Source: an uncultured Desulfovibrio sp. (lineage in GTDB: Bacteria > Desulfobacterota > Desulfovibrionia > Desulfovibrionales > Desulfovibrionaceae). From it: DNA of 40,000 nucleotides. Of the stretch, positions 25,164-30,180 are shown in pieces. The notes beneath the pieces were generated by a model. That model saw only the letters and a list, made by a program, of their open reading frames with translations, ran no database searches and was not told the origin of the DNA. Position 1 is the first letter of the stretch. The number at the start of each line of letters is the position of its first letter. The translations under genes were made by a program, and so were the position numbers. The stretch lies in contig CAZNXQ010000004.1 in the NCBI GenBank assembly GCA_964576895.1, positions 1-40,000 of the forward strand, written 5' to 3'.

Positions 25164-25919
25164 ATGGCTTCCATTTTCGATGTGTTTGGCAACGGCTCCG
25201 TGGGATCAATATTGAATACATTAGCCAGACAAGCTGGCTCAATGGCCAGCCAGGCTGGTTCTGCAACATCTGATTTTACGCGCAAGGTGCCTGGCGGTGT
25301 GGGTGGTCTTCTTGGCGCGGGCGCTTTGGGCGCATTGCTTGGGAATCTGGCATCAACAGATGTTCTTAAAAATGTCGGCTTGGTCGGCGCAGGTGCGGTT
25401 GCCTGGAACTTTTATAAAAAGTGGGCTGCCAAACAGGAAGGCCAGCAGGCGCAGACAACCAGGGGAGCTACATACGGGGAAAGCTCATGGCCGATCCAAG
25501 CATCAACAGCAGCACCATCTGAAGAAATGGTTGTGATGCAAATTGACCCAACATCCGAGTTGATTATGCGTTGCATGATTTATGCTGCAAAGGCGGACGG
25601 CAACATTGATGCTTCAGAGAAAACTCGCATAAACGCCATTTTAAAAAATATGATGGGCGGAAAAGACGTATCCGCGCTTCTTGCAAAAATGGAAGAAGAA
25701 ACTATTGACCCTTCAAAAATTGTCGCCGCCGCCCTGCCCCAACAGGCTGATGACATCTATCGGCTTTCCTGCTCTGTAATTGACATAGATCATTTTATGG
25801 AGCGTGGTTATCTGGATGCACTGGCTAATGCTCTGCATATTGCGCCCGCTATGCAGCGTGAAATTGAAGAAGAAGCCGGAGCGGCACGCAAGCAACTTGC
25901 CGCTTACATTGAAAGTTAG
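25164..25919 (+). CDS. DUF533 / TerB-like (YebE-family) membrane protein
   Basis: Gly/Ala-rich N-terminal region with a hydrophobic segment (GGLLGAGALGALLGNL..VGLVGAGAVAW), and a C-terminal TerB-like helical domain (..MIYAAKADGNIDASEK..IYRLSCSVIDIDH..ERGYLDALANAL). AGGAG precedes the ATG. Confidence 0.75.
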   Translation: MASIFDVFGNGSVGSILNTLARQAGSMASQAGSATSDFTRKVPGGVGGLLGAGALGALLGNLASTDVLKNVGLVGAGAVAWNFYKKWAAKQEGQQAQTTRGATYGESSWPIQASTAAPSEEMVVMQIDPTSELIMRCMIYAAKADGNIDASEKTRINAILKNMMGGKDVSALLAKMEEETIDPSKIVAAALPQQADDIYRLSCSVIDIDHFMERGYLDALANALHIAPAMQREIEEEAGAARKQLAAYIES

Positions 25920-25927
25920 GAAATCAA

Positions 25928-25973
25928 TGTATTAAACACTCCACAGATTAAATCCTGTGGAGTGTTCAATACA
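25928..25973. terminator. Long hairpin between the convergent DUF533 and Fe-S membrane genes
   Basis: TGTATT-A-AACACTCCACAG, loop attaaatc, CTGTGGAGTGTT-C-AATACA gives 18 paired positions with one mismatch. There is no clear U-run on either side. Confidence 0.45.
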
Positions 25974-26007: not shown

Positions 26008-26604
26008 TCAGGAAGCGTTTATTGAAACCTTGCTTCTCCTGTGGCGAAGCTGACATATCCACTGCGTCATGGTGCCCATAGGGCAGAAGGCGCACCAGGT
26101 TCGCGGCTTGTACAGCGCCATCATGACGAGGCCCAGGAGAAAGGAGGTGAGCATGATGCTGTAAAAACCGAAGCTGAATTGGGCCACCCATTTCGGTACG
26201 GATGTTTCCGTATATGCCCAGTGCCAGGGGAGCTGGAATGTCCAGAACAGGCTGACGGTCTGGCGCAGAGACGTTGCTCCAGCCCCCACCAGCCACGTCT
26301 GAAAGAGCATATTCCCAAAGACCGCCAGGAAGAAAAACAGAAAACCATATCTGAACCAGCGGGAATACAACCACGCAGGCGTCGGTCTGTTGCGTGAATA
26401 CTTCAGCTCATGGCCGAGCTTCATGCACAACTGGCCGCGCCCGCAAAAATGATTGCAGAACAGCTTGTTCCCCCCGAAGATGGCGAAGCCAAGCGGTACA
26501 AGGAAGTCGATCATTCCCAGCCAGGCGAAGAGGATATTGAAGAAGCCCAGGCTGAAATACAGGATCGTCCATATCCACAGATAGTCATACCAATGTCGCT
26601 TCAT
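26008..26604 (-). CDS. Polytopic membrane protein with CxxxC/CxxCP motifs (Fer4_5 / NapH-MauN-like membrane core)
   Basis: There are several hydrophobic helices. Cysteine motifs FCNHFCGRG and WCAFCPMGT fall at loop positions, as in the NapH/MauN/RdhC-type family. An ATGA overlap with the upstream ferredoxin gene is present (26601-26604). Confidence 0.7.
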   Translation of the reverse strand: MKRHWYDYLWIWTILYFSLGFFNILFAWLGMIDFLVPLGFAIFGGNKLFCNHFCGRGQLCMKLGHELKYSRNRPTPAWLYSRWFRYGFLFFFLAVFGNMLFQTWLVGAGATSLRQTVSLFWTFQLPWHWAYTETSVPKWVAQFSFGFYSIMLTSFLLGLVMMALYKPRTWCAFCPMGTMTQWICQLRHRRSKVSINAS

Positions 26605-26813
26605 TGGGCGTCCCGCCTTTGCCTTTCCACAAGTTCAATGCAGTTTGCCGGACACAATGCGGCGCACCTCCCGCAGCCGACACAGGCGTCGGCCCTGATT
26701 TCGGCCCAGCAGCCATGCACGACTGTAGCGGCATGGCGCGGGCAAACGCTTTCACAGGTGCCACAGGCGACACAATTTTTTTGATTGACCACGGCATGAC
26801 GTCTGGATGGCAT
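26601..26813 (-). CDS. 2x[4Fe-4S] ferredoxin (70 aa)
   Basis: CVACGTCESVCP and CVGCGRCAALCP motifs. The start overlaps the DUF134 stop (TGATG at 26811-26815). Confidence 0.8.
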   Translation of the reverse strand: MPSRRHAVVNQKNCVACGTCESVCPRHAATVVHGCWAEIRADACVGCGRCAALCPANCIELVERQRRDAQ

Positions 26814-27193
26814 CAGTATTCTCCCCTGGTTGCCGGGCTATTTTCCGGAGATTGGCGCGGGTTCCCGAATCTGCGGCAGCCATGACCACAGTGCGGCCCT
26901 CCTTCGCACAACCGATAGTCGCCCCCCTCAATAATCAGCAGTTTTCCATTCACAAGCATGTCGGCCAGTTTCTTCCTGGCGCTGGCATAGGTTGCCTGAA
27001 TGCTGGTGCGGACAACATTCATTTTTTCGGCGCATTCCTGCTGCGTCATATCCTCAAGATCTATGAGGCGGATGGACTCGTATTCATCAACAGTCAGGAT
27101 GACAGGCGTTGCTGCTGAACGGAACCCCAGAGGCGCAAATCGCGTATTCTCCGGGAGGCAGCAGACTTTTCTGCATTTTCTGGGTCGTGGCAT
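26813..27193 (-). CDS. DUF134 (UPF0251) predicted DNA-binding protein
   Basis: [19 protein letters not shown].., [57 protein letters not shown] matches the DUF134 pattern. The start is taken at the second Met (27193; AGGA 6 nt upstream); 27199 is possible. Confidence 0.8.
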
Positions 27194-27302
27194 TGGCATT
27201 CCTGCAAAAAGCTAAAATGAAACTTTTTTCATAGGCGTTTCTTGCCGACATGGCATGGGGCATAGGAAAATATCGAATCCCATGATGGGAAAGGACAATG
27301 TC

Positions 27303-27335
27303 AGGGCGGTTTACGATTCTCTCGTAAACCGCCCT
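27303..27335 (-). terminator. Perfect 13-bp hairpin just after the DUF5320 stop
   Basis: AGGGCGGTTTACG, loop attctct, CGTAAACCGCCCT. The downstream sequence on the minus strand is only weakly U-rich, so it could be a terminator or a processing/stability element. Confidence 0.4.
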
Positions 27336-27340
27336 TGAGA

Positions 27341-27568
27341 CTACCGTGAAGAAAGCAGTTCATTTATCCGCGAAAGTTCCCCTTCAAGGGCTTTTTTCCT
27401 TTGGATCAGCCGTTCGGTTCCATCTTCGCGGGAGAATTGTTTTCCATAATTCATGCAGCAAGGCCCCTGGCCGTTTTGAGCGCCGAAGCCCGACTGGGCG
27501 CCCATATGCCGGAACCGTCTGCAATGTTGCCTTGCCCCACGCGCTCCTGCTCCATTTTGTCCTGGCAT
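27341..27568 (-). CDS. DUF5320-family small protein (Gly-rich N-terminus, C-terminal coiled coil)
   Basis: MPGQNGAGARGA..C.. followed by ..LIQRKKALEGELSRINELL resembles the DUF5320 layout that often accompanies DUF134 genes in anaerobes (from memory). AAGGAG lies 6 nt before the ATG at 27568. Confidence 0.65.
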   Translation of the reverse strand: MPGQNGAGARGARQHCRRFRHMGAQSGFGAQNGQGPCCMNYGKQFSREDGTERLIQRKKALEGELSRINELLSSR

Positions 27569-27581
27569 GGCGTACTCCTTT

Positions 27582-27638
27582 GTTATTGACATATGCCGTT
27601 AACTTTTTGTGGCAAACTTTATGACATATGTCAATAAC
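27582..27638. promoter_or_regulatory. 14-bp perfect inverted repeat pair upstream of the DUF5320/DUF134 genes (candidate operator)
   Basis: GTTATTGACATATG (27582-27595) and CATATGTCAATAAC (27625-27638) are separated by 29 nt. The pair starts 14 nt upstream of the DUF5320 ATG, and each half contains a TTGACA-like hexamer. Confidence 0.4.
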
Positions 27639-27644
27639 TATGCG

Positions 27645-27689
27645 ATAAAAATTCAAATGCCTCCCCCGGTATCCGGGAGAGGCATTTTT
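27645..27689 (-). terminator. Bidirectional-looking intrinsic terminator after the multiheme cytochrome gene
   Basis: GCCTCCCCCGG-tat-CCGGGAGAGGC (27659-27683). The minus strand continues ATTTGAATTTTTAT and the plus strand continues ATTTTT. It lies 26 nt after the cytochrome stop. Confidence 0.6.
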
Positions 27690-27708: not shown

Positions 27709-30180
27709 TTAGCAATCTTTCCTGGCACGACGGCGTCGAATGATCCAGATCAGCACGGGCAACGCCAGCACCGCAGCCACGATACCCAAGACCTTGACCC
27801 AGGCAATGCTGATGTTGTTCTCGCGCAATAAGCCCGCGTGCGCCTGTGGCGACGCGAAATCCAGGTCAAGGACTTCCGCCATTTTGCCCAGCATGGCGAT
27901 GGGAATGGCCCCCTGAGGGATGTCCTGATGGCAGGCAAGGCAGGTGTCACTGCGTTCCAGCGCATTGCGCTGTTCAGGCGTCAACGGCATGGAGTCGGGC
28001 CAGTGCGTATCCACGGTCTGCACCTGTGTTCCATCCGTGCGCAACACCTGCATGAAGTCGCCGTGCAAGCCCCGGATAGCCTGAATCTGGGGCTGGGTGA
28101 AGCGGCTCACGTTGCGACCGTCGGGGGTACGCACGTCTGCATAGCGAACCTTTTCGGGATGCAGGCCATACCGACCGCCATCGATCCCGTAGCCCATAGC
28201 CGCCGCATTGCCGTGGCAGTCCGCGCAGTTGCGGCTTTCACGCGAGGAAGTATGCGGGTTGAGCGGGGCCAACTCCATAGCGTTATAGCCCTTTTCGGTT
28301 TTAGCCACCTTATTCCAGGCAAGGGTCTTGCCGTCCGGACCGATGACCGTGCCCACGGTCTGGATGACGCCCACCAGCGGGGTGACACGCCCTTCGCCGT
28401 TGATGCCCAGCGGCGGGTTTTCCCAGCGTACATGACTGTAGTCCCAGGAAGTCGGCGCGCCGGGCTGATCGCTCATCTGTCCCTTGCGATCCGCCGGGCT
28501 GCCGTCAGGCAGACTCCGCTCCGCCGTCTTCAGCCAGTCTGTGGAACGCTGCCTGTAGTCCAGAGCATACTGATAGCCATAATACTGAGCTGCCCAAGTG
28601 GAGTGGCAGGCATAGCATTCCAGCTTTTCCATATGGCGGCCCACACCAACCATAGCTGTGGTGGCCAGGGCGGGATTGGCCCACTTGTTGGCCTGGCGCA
28701 GCCCCTTGAGGGGAATCAGCTCAAAATCATGACCATTGGCCGAATGCACGATGACCTTGTCCCCCCGGCGCACCACATTGCCAAAGGGATTGCCGCGTGC
28801 GGAAAGCAGGTAGCCATCCTCAGCATCGGAGGTATGGGCAAAGTCCTTTGTGACCTTCATGGCTTCCCGGCTCACACCGCGCGGCTTGTTCCAGTCCACA
28901 GGCTTGCCGAATTCATCGCCATAGCCAAGTGGCAGCTCCCAGGGATACTTGTCTGGCGTTCCATGACAGTCCGCGCATTCCACTTCGATGGTGGCCAGGG
29001 TGGTCGCGCCGATATTGCCATTACCATGCATGGACGTGCTCAGATGACAATCCTGGCACAACAGGCCTGCTTCCGTGCCGTTAACATCCTTGAGAGCGAA
29101 ATGGGCATCCTCACGGATATACTTGAACACATAGCCGCCATTGGCCTTTTGGGGTTCCCCCTGAGCATCAAAGGGACCTCGATGGTCACCATGACCGAAG
29201 GCCATAAGGCCCTGATAGGCGTGGCCGATACGCCTGCCAGCCGCATGGCAGGCCGCGCAGGTATTGACCTGGATTCCCGAGAACGACGCCCCGTTCACCG
29301 TTGTTACGGAATGGCGTGTTCCCTGCATGGCGTGGGTCATCAGATGGCCGGGCTGATCCTTGGGCAGCGCCTTGTCGCCGCCTTCGTAATACCCTTCGTT
29401 GCTGTACAGCGTATGGCAGGCGGCGCAGCCCACACCCCGGAAATGTCCCCTGTCCTGATAGCCCTTGCCGCTCAGATGACAGGCATTGCAGTTGCGCAGA
29501 TAGGTGAACGCGGCCTGTTCCGGCTGTTCGGCCAGCTTCGCCATGTCCACTTCAGGGATCTGTTGCAATTTTTCCGGGAACTGTCCGGGAAAACGCCCGG
29601 CCAGATCCTTCATGTAGGCCCTGTACGCCTCCGTTCCAAGGCGCGGCGTCATACCGTCCGGGTCATCAAGATCGTGGTCGCCGTAAATGTGGTCATGGTT
29701 CCGGGTTCCGATGCCCCAGCTCCAGGTGATGGCCTTCATTTTACCCGCATCCGTGTTCATGTGCGAACGTCTGACCGCATAGACATGATCCGCGTGACAC
29801 TGACCGCAGGTCGCGTCATTGAGTTGCAAAGCGCCGGGTGTGGCTGTGAAGGTCGTCAGCCGACTCCCCGCCGGGGCCAGGCTGTGTGCGATGTCCTTGT
29901 TCTGCACTTCCGCAGGCGTTCCGGCATGGCAGACAACACAGCCGTTGGGGTCGCCCAGCTCCCTGCCTTTAGCGAAAATGGCCTGCATCATGCCGGATTC
30001 CGGCGGGCGGGGCGGCTCAATTCCCTGATGACAGGCAAGACAATACTGATTTTCAGCGGGAAAAATTTTTGCGGCTCCGGTTGTTGCCGCTGTTGCCGCT
30101 CCAGCGGTATCCGCAGAGCCCGGATTCATAGCGAACATCAGGGAGACACATAAAAACAGCAGAGGCAATGGCGATTGCAT
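27709..30180 (-). CDS. Undecaheme c-type cytochrome, periplasmic with C-terminal membrane anchor (823 aa)
   Basis: There are eleven CxxCH motifs, with first Cys at residues 47, 81, 125, 231, 252, 308, 375, 402, 522, 652 and 747. An N-terminal signal peptide (..LFLCVSLMFAMNPGSA) and a C-terminal hydrophobic helix plus a basic stop-transfer (IAWVKVLGIVAAVLALPVLIWIIRRRRARK) are present. A strong AAGGAGG precedes the ATG at 30180. Confidence 0.9.
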   Translation of the reverse strand: MQSPLPLLFLCVSLMFAMNPGSADTAGAATAATTGAAKIFPAENQYCLACHQGIEPPRPPESGMMQAIFAKGRELGDPNGCVVCHAGTPAEVQNKDIAHSLAPAGSRLTTFTATPGALQLNDATCGQCHADHVYAVRRSHMNTDAGKMKAITWSWGIGTRNHDHIYGDHDLDDPDGMTPRLGTEAYRAYMKDLAGRFPGQFPEKLQQIPEVDMAKLAEQPEQAAFTYLRNCNACHLSGKGYQDRGHFRGVGCAACHTLYSNEGYYEGGDKALPKDQPGHLMTHAMQGTRHSVTTVNGASFSGIQVNTCAACHAAGRRIGHAYQGLMAFGHGDHRGPFDAQGEPQKANGGYVFKYIREDAHFALKDVNGTEAGLLCQDCHLSTSMHGNGNIGATTLATIEVECADCHGTPDKYPWELPLGYGDEFGKPVDWNKPRGVSREAMKVTKDFAHTSDAEDGYLLSARGNPFGNVVRRGDKVIVHSANGHDFELIPLKGLRQANKWANPALATTAMVGVGRHMEKLECYACHSTWAAQYYGYQYALDYRQRSTDWLKTAERSLPDGSPADRKGQMSDQPGAPTSWDYSHVRWENPPLGINGEGRVTPLVGVIQTVGTVIGPDGKTLAWNKVAKTEKGYNAMELAPLNPHTSSRESRNCADCHGNAAAMGYGIDGGRYGLHPEKVRYADVRTPDGRNVSRFTQPQIQAIRGLHGDFMQVLRTDGTQVQTVDTHWPDSMPLTPEQRNALERSDTCLACHQDIPQGAIPIAMLGKMAEVLDLDFASPQAHAGLLRENNISIAWVKVLGIVAAVLALPVLIWIIRRRRARKDC

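Follow-up and report, generated by a model that had tools for sequence, protein, structure and literature searches.

NapH, NosR and RdhC share a common membrane module of four segments with two CX3CP motifs, to whose cysteines no function has been assigned (PMC5928378). CcoG, a cupric reductase, contains two [4Fe-4S] clusters as well as two Cu sites; its substrate is reduced at the membrane, and its low-potential donor is not known (PMC7558416). Here we analyzed 40,000 nucleotides of DNA from an uncultured Desulfovibrio sp. (assembly GCA_964576895.1, contig CAZNXQ010000004.1, positions 1 to 40,000; the window hereafter), in which positions 26008 to 27568 hold genes for a DUF5320-like protein, a DUF134 protein, a ferredoxin and a membrane protein with cysteine motifs. 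An original prediction, made from the window alone, had regarded the last two as a split NapH-like module working together with a neighbouring multiheme cytochrome. Our analysis led to a different reading, to which we give a probability of roughly 50%: the genes form an autonomous cassette of about 1.7 kb, derived from Bacillota, with a ferredoxin-driven membrane thiol/disulfide reductase as its core under the control of DUF134.

Organization of the cassette

The four genes are co-oriented on the minus strand, as had been predicted. They lie between a predicted operator and a terminator-like hairpin, and the elements of the cassette are as follows.

27582..27638, minus strand: predicted promoter/operator region of the cassette, with DUF134 boxes inside inverted repeats
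27341-27568, minus strand: DUF5320-like gene, 75 aa from an ATG behind an AAGGAG ribosome-binding site
27304..27334, minus strand: hairpin with a 12-bp stem, GGGCGGTTTACG...CGTAAACCGCCC, read from the sequence, no T-run
26813-27199, minus strand: DUF134 (UPF0251) gene, 128 aa, Pfam DUF134 match of 84.9 bits
26601-26813, minus strand: ferredoxin gene, 70 aa, 2x[4Fe-4S], translationally coupled on either side
26008-26604, minus strand: membrane protein gene, 198 aa, four transmembrane helices, Fer4_5 match in the C-terminal half
25928..25973, minus strand: terminator-like hairpin closing the cassette, intrinsic type, 20-pair stem followed by a T-rich tail

The last three genes are coupled in the way originally described: the DUF134 stop and the ferredoxin start form TGATG, with a 1-base overlap at 26813, and the ferredoxin stop and the membrane protein start form ATGA, with a 4-base overlap at 26601-26604. 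The 141-nt gap from the DUF5320-like gene to DUF134 is occupied by the hairpin at 27304-27334. This hairpin was not among the terminator-like hairpins listed for the region, and it may serve in RNA processing or attenuation. The matching stretch is poorly conserved in the second copy of the cassette described below.

The ferredoxin matched Pfam Fer4 with 48.5 bits, and also Fer4_21. Its two CxxCxxCxxxCP motifs, which the original prediction had pointed out, are CVACGTCESVCP and CVGCGRCAALCP at residues 14-25 and 44-55. With two such motifs in 70 aa, the protein has the features of a bacterial-type 2x[4Fe-4S] ferredoxin (two motifs, about 55-80 aa).

The membrane protein and its family

The membrane protein matched Pfam Fer4_5 (PF12801) at residues 151-192 with 30.9 bits (E 2.7e-7; cut-off 22 bits), and Pfam gave no Fer4_5 match in its N-terminal half. 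An internal duplication into two Fer4_5-like halves was considered and rejected (hhalign probability 1%). The expected CxxxC and CxxCP motifs were located as C50-NHF-C54 (CX3C-G) and C171-AF-C174-P (CX2CP). In an alignment of 108 sequences, five cysteines were invariant, C50, C54, C171, C174 and C184, the last followed by only 14 residues to the C-terminus; C60 was not conserved.

Hydropathy, the positive-inside rule and an AlphaFold2 (AF2) model together predicted four helices in an N-in/C-in arrangement with both cysteine motifs on the cytoplasmic side. Lysine and arginine numbered 7 and 6 in the two cysteine-bearing segments versus 2 in the outer loop, and the AF2 model contained four long helices, for which the ranges 5-44, 82-107 and 138-164 were given. 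The cytoplasmic fusion partners found at either end of the protein agree with this topology. The helices and the aromatic-rich outer loop were very strongly conserved, and the 108-sequence alignment contained no conserved His or Cys in either, so that there is no sign of a haem or of a thiol relay across the membrane.

More than 4500 homologues of the membrane protein were found across phyla, typically about 70% identical, and clustering at 50% reduced the family to few full-length members, or 870 representatives once fragments were counted. About a dozen clusters among the best 120 matches, including P0060 (307 aa), carried a WCGPC thioredoxin fused to the C-terminus of the membrane protein. 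In one further cluster, P0006 (277 aa), a 2x[4Fe-4S] ferredoxin was naturally fused to its N-terminus. An NCBIfam scan of the membrane protein returned no family, and no sequence match for its family was found among solved structures.

The ferredoxin-membrane protein pair in other genomes

We collected 80 genome loci containing the pair, clustered the neighbouring open reading frames (ORFs) and scanned them with Pfam. In 79 of the 80 loci, the gene immediately 5' of the membrane gene encoded a ferredoxin homologue. The ferredoxin and the membrane protein are an obligate two-gene module of strict anaerobes of the gut and rumen. The hosts included Lachnospiraceae, Oscillospiraceae, Butyrivibrio, Oribacterium, Treponema, Phascolarctobacterium, Bacteroidota and Desulfovibrio; that is, the pair was present in Bacillota, Spirochaetota and Bacteroidota as well as in Desulfovibrio.

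At least one thiol-redox gene neighboured the pair in 42 loci. The recurrent neighbours were a Crp-type regulator (25 loci), a C_GCAxxG_C_C 'putative redox-active protein' (19), thioredoxin (14), a CoA-disulfide-reductase-rhodanese (CoADR-rhodanese; 14), a DUF134-NifX fusion (13), an HxlR regulator (13), rhodanese (9), thioredoxin reductase (TrxR; 6) and a small FTR-catalytic-like protein (2), FTR being ferredoxin:thioredoxin reductase. The following operon types recurred (Fd, ferredoxin; Mem, membrane protein; Trx, thioredoxin; Rhd, rhodanese).

HxlR< Fd> Mem> GCAxxG>
DUF134-NifX> TrxR> Fd> Mem>
Trx> Rhd> CoADR> Crp< ... Fd> Mem> DUF134-NifX> Trx> TrxR>
DUF134-NifX> Crp> FTRc-like> Fd> Mem> Trx> CoADR>

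One locus (L010) had the order DUF134-NifX, Crp, rubrerythrin, desulfoferrodoxin, FeThRed_B-like, ferredoxin, membrane-thioredoxin fusion and rhodanese. An electron relay was suggested by the gene order (ferredoxin, membrane protein, thioredoxin), by the partners fused to either terminus of the membrane protein and by the thiol-redox neighbours.

Another Desulfovibrio genome (G015; L019:5086-11019) contained a less closely related copy of the pair, with 59% identity. Its immediate neighbours are a GltD-like Fer4_20/Pyr_redox_2 protein on one side and a 236-aa ferredoxin-domain protein on the other, and a gene that resembles hybrid cluster protein, as judged by the N-terminal sequence alone, lies about 3 kb upstream. 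These surroundings may represent a nitrosative or oxidative stress context. In loci of the Blautia/Oliverpabstia/Fusicatenibacter type (L033, L034 and L040-L044), the operon opens with two uncharacterised genes, followed by the ferredoxin, membrane protein and DUF134-NifX genes. Their products are a 306-aa protein with no Pfam match and a 149-aa protein with a hydrophobic N-terminus and a sub-threshold DUF948/coiled-coil match, and a one-mismatch copy of the DUF134 box described below lies just 5' of the first gene.

Comparison with NapH, CcoG and FTR

The membrane protein resembles NapH, NosR and RdhC (PceC) in having four helices, of which the second and the fourth are each followed closely by a short cysteine motif on the cytoplasmic face. 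It shares with NapH the predicted cytoplasmic location of both termini and, as in NapH and NosR, it is associated with a 2x[4Fe-4S] unit. In this respect the original proposal of a split NapH-like module was supported in outline: the four-helix core, the cytoplasmic cysteine motifs, the Fer4_5 match, the separate but coupled ferredoxin gene and the natural fusion in P0006 all agree with it. What failed was membership in the family. Instead of two CX3CP motifs, the membrane protein has CX3C-G and CX2CP and, in addition, a fifth invariant cysteine, whereas NapH-like proteins of Desulfovibrionaceae have CxxxCP twice. Unlike in NapH, the ferredoxin is encoded by a separate upstream gene, and in the rare fusion it is N-terminal, not C-terminal. 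There is no flavin mononucleotide (FMN) domain, and the pair is neighboured by thiol-redox genes, not by nap, nos or rdh genes. The NapH model TIGR02163 (cut-off 213 bits) gave no match at 26008-26604, and in the genome it matched only ferredoxin-like stretches elsewhere. In hhalign against six NapH-like Desulfovibrionaceae proteins, the probability was 24% over 38 columns covering one motif. 'Split NapH-like' is a description of architectural resemblance, not of family membership.

CcoG (FixG) and YccM are similar in combining a membrane module bearing cysteine motifs with two [4Fe-4S] clusters. CcoG, however, is a single large protein, includes an Ig-like domain in the periplasm and is encoded in a ccoGHIS cluster. 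Membership in CcoG/FixG was rejected, as the 198-aa protein has neither a Fer4 nor an Ig-like domain and no NCBIfam match; cco genes were not found among the island proteins scanned, and no copper genes were found nearby.

In FTR and in clostridial and archaeal ferredoxin-dependent disulfide reductases, electrons pass from a one-electron ferredoxin through a Cys/Fe-S centre to thioredoxin, and a similar path is proposed here. The likeness lies in the gene order of ferredoxin, membrane protein and thioredoxin and in the fusions. There is no sequence relationship to FTR, and the protein studied here is integral to the membrane. Membership in the FTR catalytic subunit family was rejected, since neither the membrane protein nor the ferredoxin matched FeThRed_B and the CPC...CPC...CHC pattern was absent. 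Proteins of 65-70 aa with CPC...CxC...CHC, an FTR catalytic signature, were encoded immediately upstream of the ferredoxin in some loci (L010:5585-5788, L023 and L057). Such loci carry a separate FTR-catalytic-like gene in addition to the pair, so that FTR and the membrane protein are not equivalent. By its logic, the pair would be a membrane-bound analogue of FTR and, by descent, we regard its membrane protein as a stripped-down relative of the membrane module of NapH, NosR, RdhC and CcoG.

Evidence that the cassette is independent of the cytochrome gene

The cassette lies on an island with a G+C content of 52-58%, against about 68% in the flanks. Besides the cassette, the island carries a P4-type integrase, a NikA/MobC gene, a DUF533/TerB-like gene and the cytochrome gene; the window holds no tRNA that could mark an integration site. 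The elements next to the cassette are as follows.

27709-30180, co-oriented with the cassette: cytochrome gene, 823 aa, 11 CxxCH motifs, C-terminal hydrophobic anchor
27655..27687, minus strand: strong intrinsic terminator of the upstream cytochrome gene, outside the cassette, 15-pair stem with 9 GC pairs, TTTTT tail
25164-25919, island cargo: DUF533 gene with a weak, sub-threshold TerB match

The original prediction was correct in describing a membrane-anchored 11-heme cytochrome upstream. Its best NCBIfam match was ExtM of the selenite/tellurite operon (E 1.6e-47), far below the cut-off. An island-wide role in metalloid stress is conceivable but unsupported.

A second complete four-gene cassette was found on another contig of the same genome, C26 (L017:8540-10415). 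There it directly follows high-G+C chromosomal genes for alpha-2-macroglobulin and pbpC (PBP1C), with no cytochrome. Between the two copies, protein identity was 49% for the DUF5320-like protein, 83% for DUF134, 78% for the ferredoxin and 92% for the membrane protein; the low value for the DUF5320-like protein, against 78-92% for the other three, suggests faster evolution or weaker constraint. In the C26 copy, a 127-nt gap takes the place of the ATGA overlap from ferredoxin to membrane gene, and the contig ends about 150 bp past the latter. At the DNA level, the two copies are similar precisely from the inverted repeat GTTATTGACATATG onward, and the cytochrome terminator is not part of the similar stretch.

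The cytochrome gene was present in a single copy in the genome, and its closest homologues (87-89% and 71% identity) were solitary genes in unrelated contexts. Neither a cytochrome homologue nor an ORF with at least three CxxCH motifs was found in any of the 80 pair loci. The second copy, the neighbour counts, the solitary cytochrome homologues and the separate terminator spoke against a functional unit of cassette and cytochrome. The original prediction had itself named a widespread occurrence of the genes apart from cytochromes as the outcome that would make their adjacency coincidental, and we observed no recurrence with multiheme cytochromes. It is highly probable that the genes represent an autonomous redox cassette independent of the cytochrome.

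In the related gut Desulfovibrio UMGS998 (L018/L021), the same pbpC-adjacent site held only the ferredoxin and membrane genes, with the ferredoxin gene beginning 19 nt past the pbpC stop; no DUF5320, DUF134 or box was found at this site. This indicated that the regulator pair and the redox pair are separable modules. A homologue of the membrane protein was present in only 4 of the 41 related genomes searched. In a maximum-likelihood tree, the window, C26 and UMGS998 copies formed one clade (99/100) nested inside Bacillota sequences, and two other Desulfovibrio copies of the membrane protein were placed elsewhere on long branches. This placement fits horizontal acquisition of the cassette. A G+C content of 52-54%, against about 68% in the flanks, also supports its mobility.

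DUF134 and its candidate operator

Of the Pfam assignments in the original prediction, Fer4_5 and DUF134 were recovered above threshold and DUF5320 was not. The DUF134 match (PF02001; 84.9 bits, cut-off 27) was confirmed on genomic DNA. The protein contains a sigma-70 region-4-like helix-turn-helix with a weak Sigma70_r4_2 match and five family-conserved cysteines (C13, C56, C98, C104 and C108), and no sequence match for DUF134 was found among solved structures. The DUF5320-like protein, which is Gly/Arg-rich with a C-terminal coiled coil, scored 18.7 bits (E=0.004) against DUF5320 (PF17253; cut-off 27), and its C26 copy (L017:8619-8843) scored 25.4 bits. Comparison with canonical members by hhalign gave 33% probability over the C-terminal helix/coiled coil only. 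We kept the label because of the gene position upstream of DUF134 and the C-terminal coiled-coil match. The DUF5320-like protein may be a partner of DUF134.

In front of the cassette, we found an exact 12-bp palindrome, TGACATATGTCA, at 27622-27633, and a degenerate partner with two mismatches at 27587-27598; both lie inside 14-bp inverted repeats, GTTATTGACATATG / CATATGTCAATAAC. This sequence, the DUF134 box, was searched for in 80 metagenome loci with close homologues of DUF134 (L106-L185). Allowing at most one mismatch, 89 sites were found in 560 kb of metagenome loci versus 3 in shuffled DNA, and 87 of them were within 0-1.5 kb upstream of DUF134. The box was located upstream of DUF134 genes in 52 of the 80 loci. 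Sites were usually paired, 33-40 bp apart, at a median of 70 nt before the first gene, and the extended consensus was TtAT-TGACATATGTCA-ATaA. The host assembly (2.19 Mb) contained only two exact boxes, the one in the window and one at C26:19553-19564, and only two DUF134 genes, each with one exact box upstream. Among the pair loci, the box was present in 8 of the 13 with a DUF134 gene versus 4 of the 67 without.

The conserved paired box, with one exact copy per DUF134 gene, suggested that DUF134 is an autoregulated regulator. This points to DUF134 as the autoregulated regulator of the cassette, and the conserved putative operator supports the earlier suggestion that DUF134 is a dedicated regulator. 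Binding of DUF134 to TGACATATGTCA is predicted from these site statistics, and the protein probably senses Fe-S or thiol state.

The close homologues of DUF134 were accompanied by the membrane gene in only 5 of the 80 loci. Their partners were two MinD-like ATPases with ferredoxin inserts (MinD-FeS; 35 loci), a NifX-like protein (20 loci, plus 26 in which it was fused to DUF134), a Crp regulator (19 loci), canonical DUF5320 directly upstream (15 loci) and Mrp/NBP35 (10 loci). The MinD-FeS/NifX/Mrp neighbourhood of DUF134 is the orange-protein (ORP) cluster type (PMC6345978). The usual company of DUF134 and DUF5320 is this set of genes, which does not support the originally predicted link to the cytochrome. 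The cassette resembles ORP clusters in that DUF5320, DUF134 and the TGACATATGTCA box form a unit preceding NifX-like, MinD-FeS and Mrp genes in many anaerobes; here the unit is combined with the ferredoxin-membrane module instead of ORP genes. The orp operons of Desulfovibrio vulgaris are described as being under the sigma-54 activator OrpR (PMC8359166). The cassette differs from these operons in having a DUF134 unit, not OrpR, together with the ferredoxin-membrane pair in place of ORP genes.

Proposed mechanism and alternative explanations

We propose the following mechanism. The cassette, in the order of operator/promoter, DUF5320-like gene, DUF134, ferredoxin, Cys-motif membrane protein and terminator, would have entered gut Desulfovibrio from Bacillota, and here it would ride an integrase island beside the cytochrome gene by chance of assembly. 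The 2x[4Fe-4S] ferredoxin would be loaded by reduced cytoplasmic electron carriers and dock at the cytoplasmic face of the four-helix membrane protein. Electrons would then go to a redox centre made of the five invariant cysteines, with CX3C after the second and CX2CP...C after the fourth transmembrane helix. This centre could be an interfacial Fe-S cluster beside a reactive thiol pair, or redox-active thiols alone, and would reduce thioredoxin-type or other disulfide/persulfide substrates. At the promoter, DUF134 would bind to the pair of TGACATATGTCA boxes, and in this way it would autoregulate the cassette on an Fe-S or thiol redox signal.

Several points weigh against this mechanism. Five cysteines are one fewer than in the FTR arrangement of four cluster ligands and a disulfide, and nothing explains why a thioredoxin reductase should be integral to the membrane. 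The AF2 model of the membrane protein had only moderate confidence (predicted local distance difference test score, pLDDT, 66.7), and a Foldseek search with it against the PDB gave no structural match. No thiol-redox neighbour was found within 5 kb in 38 of the 80 pair loci, many of whose contigs were short, and no thioredoxin gene adjoins the cassette in the window. A literature search returned no publication on the function of DUF134/UPF0251/DUF5320 or on the gene pair or membrane family. A relay directed specifically at thioredoxin falls somewhat short of even odds. The broadest form of the proposal is tentative and, taken as a whole, rather unlikely: that the pair is an unrecognised membrane-bound ferredoxin:thioredoxin (disulfide/persulfide) reductase, unrelated to FTR and a clue to the cysteine motifs of NapH, NosR, RdhC and CcoG, and that DUF134 represents a new family of Fe-S/thiol-sensing autoregulators on TGACATATGTCA that also controls ORP-type Fe-S genes.

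In the original prediction, the island would be a self-contained electron-transfer system: a split NapH-type unit would move electrons between the membrane-anchored 11-haem cytochrome encoded next to it and the cytoplasm or the quinone pool. The cytochrome and cassette genes are indeed adjacent and co-oriented on one island, the membrane protein is above the Fer4_5 threshold, and the NapH/NosR/RdhC module is thought to connect quinol or cytoplasmic donors with periplasmic enzymes (PMC5928378). This explanation is nevertheless very improbable given the strong terminator and the separate operator/promoter between cytochrome gene and cassette, the second cassette without a cytochrome, the single cytochrome gene in this genome, the lack of any cytochrome or multi-CxxCH ORF in the pair loci and the closest cytochrome homologues standing alone. 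Moreover, most host taxa are represented by Bacillota or Treponema loci without c-type cytochrome neighbours, and the helices and outer loop offer no conserved His or Cys to hold a transmembrane cofactor. It is improbable that the pair is instead a split minimal CcoG-like reductase that acts on metals or metalloids (such as Cu(II), tellurite or selenite) on the cytoplasmic side of the membrane, forming an island set with the TerB/DUF533 protein and the ExtM-like cytochrome. Copper or metalloid genes were not among the recurrent neighbours in the 80 loci, NCBIfam gave no match for the membrane protein, the TerB and ExtM matches were sub-threshold, and what recurs as a fusion to the membrane protein is thioredoxin instead of a domain that binds metal. 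These outweigh the similar membrane module of CcoG, which with two [4Fe-4S] clusters and two Cu sites reduces Cu(II) (PMC7558416), the DUF533/TerB-like and ExtM-matching neighbours on the island, and an HMA-DsbD-like neighbour in one locus.

Oxidation of quinol has been proposed for the membrane segments of NapH (PMC5928378), and a ferredoxin:quinone or quinol:ferredoxin oxidoreductase, with a quinone site in the four helices and the cysteine motifs as a relay, would account for the very strong conservation of the helices and the aromatic-rich outer loop. This is quite improbable, however, since the neighbours are soluble thiol-redox proteins, not respiratory enzymes, and the similarity to NapH-like proteins is confined to one motif (hhalign probability 24%). 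Many of the hosts (Lachnospiraceae, Butyrivibrio, Oribacterium, Treponema) are also fermenters, which would be expected mostly to lack respiratory quinones. A membrane-associated factor for handling or repair of Fe-S clusters, tied to the ORP-type machinery usual with DUF134, would fit the NifX-like, MinD-FeS and Mrp genes that DUF134/DUF5320 usually precede and the DUF134-NifX fusions adjoining the pair in 13 loci. It has little probability, because the pair is found far more often without an ORP-type gene (Mrp in 4 of the 80 loci), MinD-FeS was not among its recurrent neighbour clusters, the membrane gene is rare in DUF134 loci, and the link between DUF134 and the pair can be explained by shared regulation alone.

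Implications

For the window, the analysis removes an attractive but unsupported mobile electron conduit based on the cytochrome. It leaves a ferredoxin-membrane redox module that is uncharacterised but very conserved, together with a new putative operator of DUF134. The operator palindrome TGACATATGTCA is new here; with it, DUF134 would change from a domain without a known function to a regulator that can be tested at a defined operator and that is tied to the Fe-S machinery of the orange protein. Although abundant in anaerobes of the human gut and the rumen, the ferredoxin-membrane pair has no name, structure or publication. Should the pair prove to be a ferredoxin-driven thiol reductase, there would be a first functional lead on the conserved cysteine motifs of the NapH/NosR/RdhC/CcoG membrane module, and the pair would be a missing link from low-potential metabolism to thiol/persulfide homeostasis in gut anaerobes.

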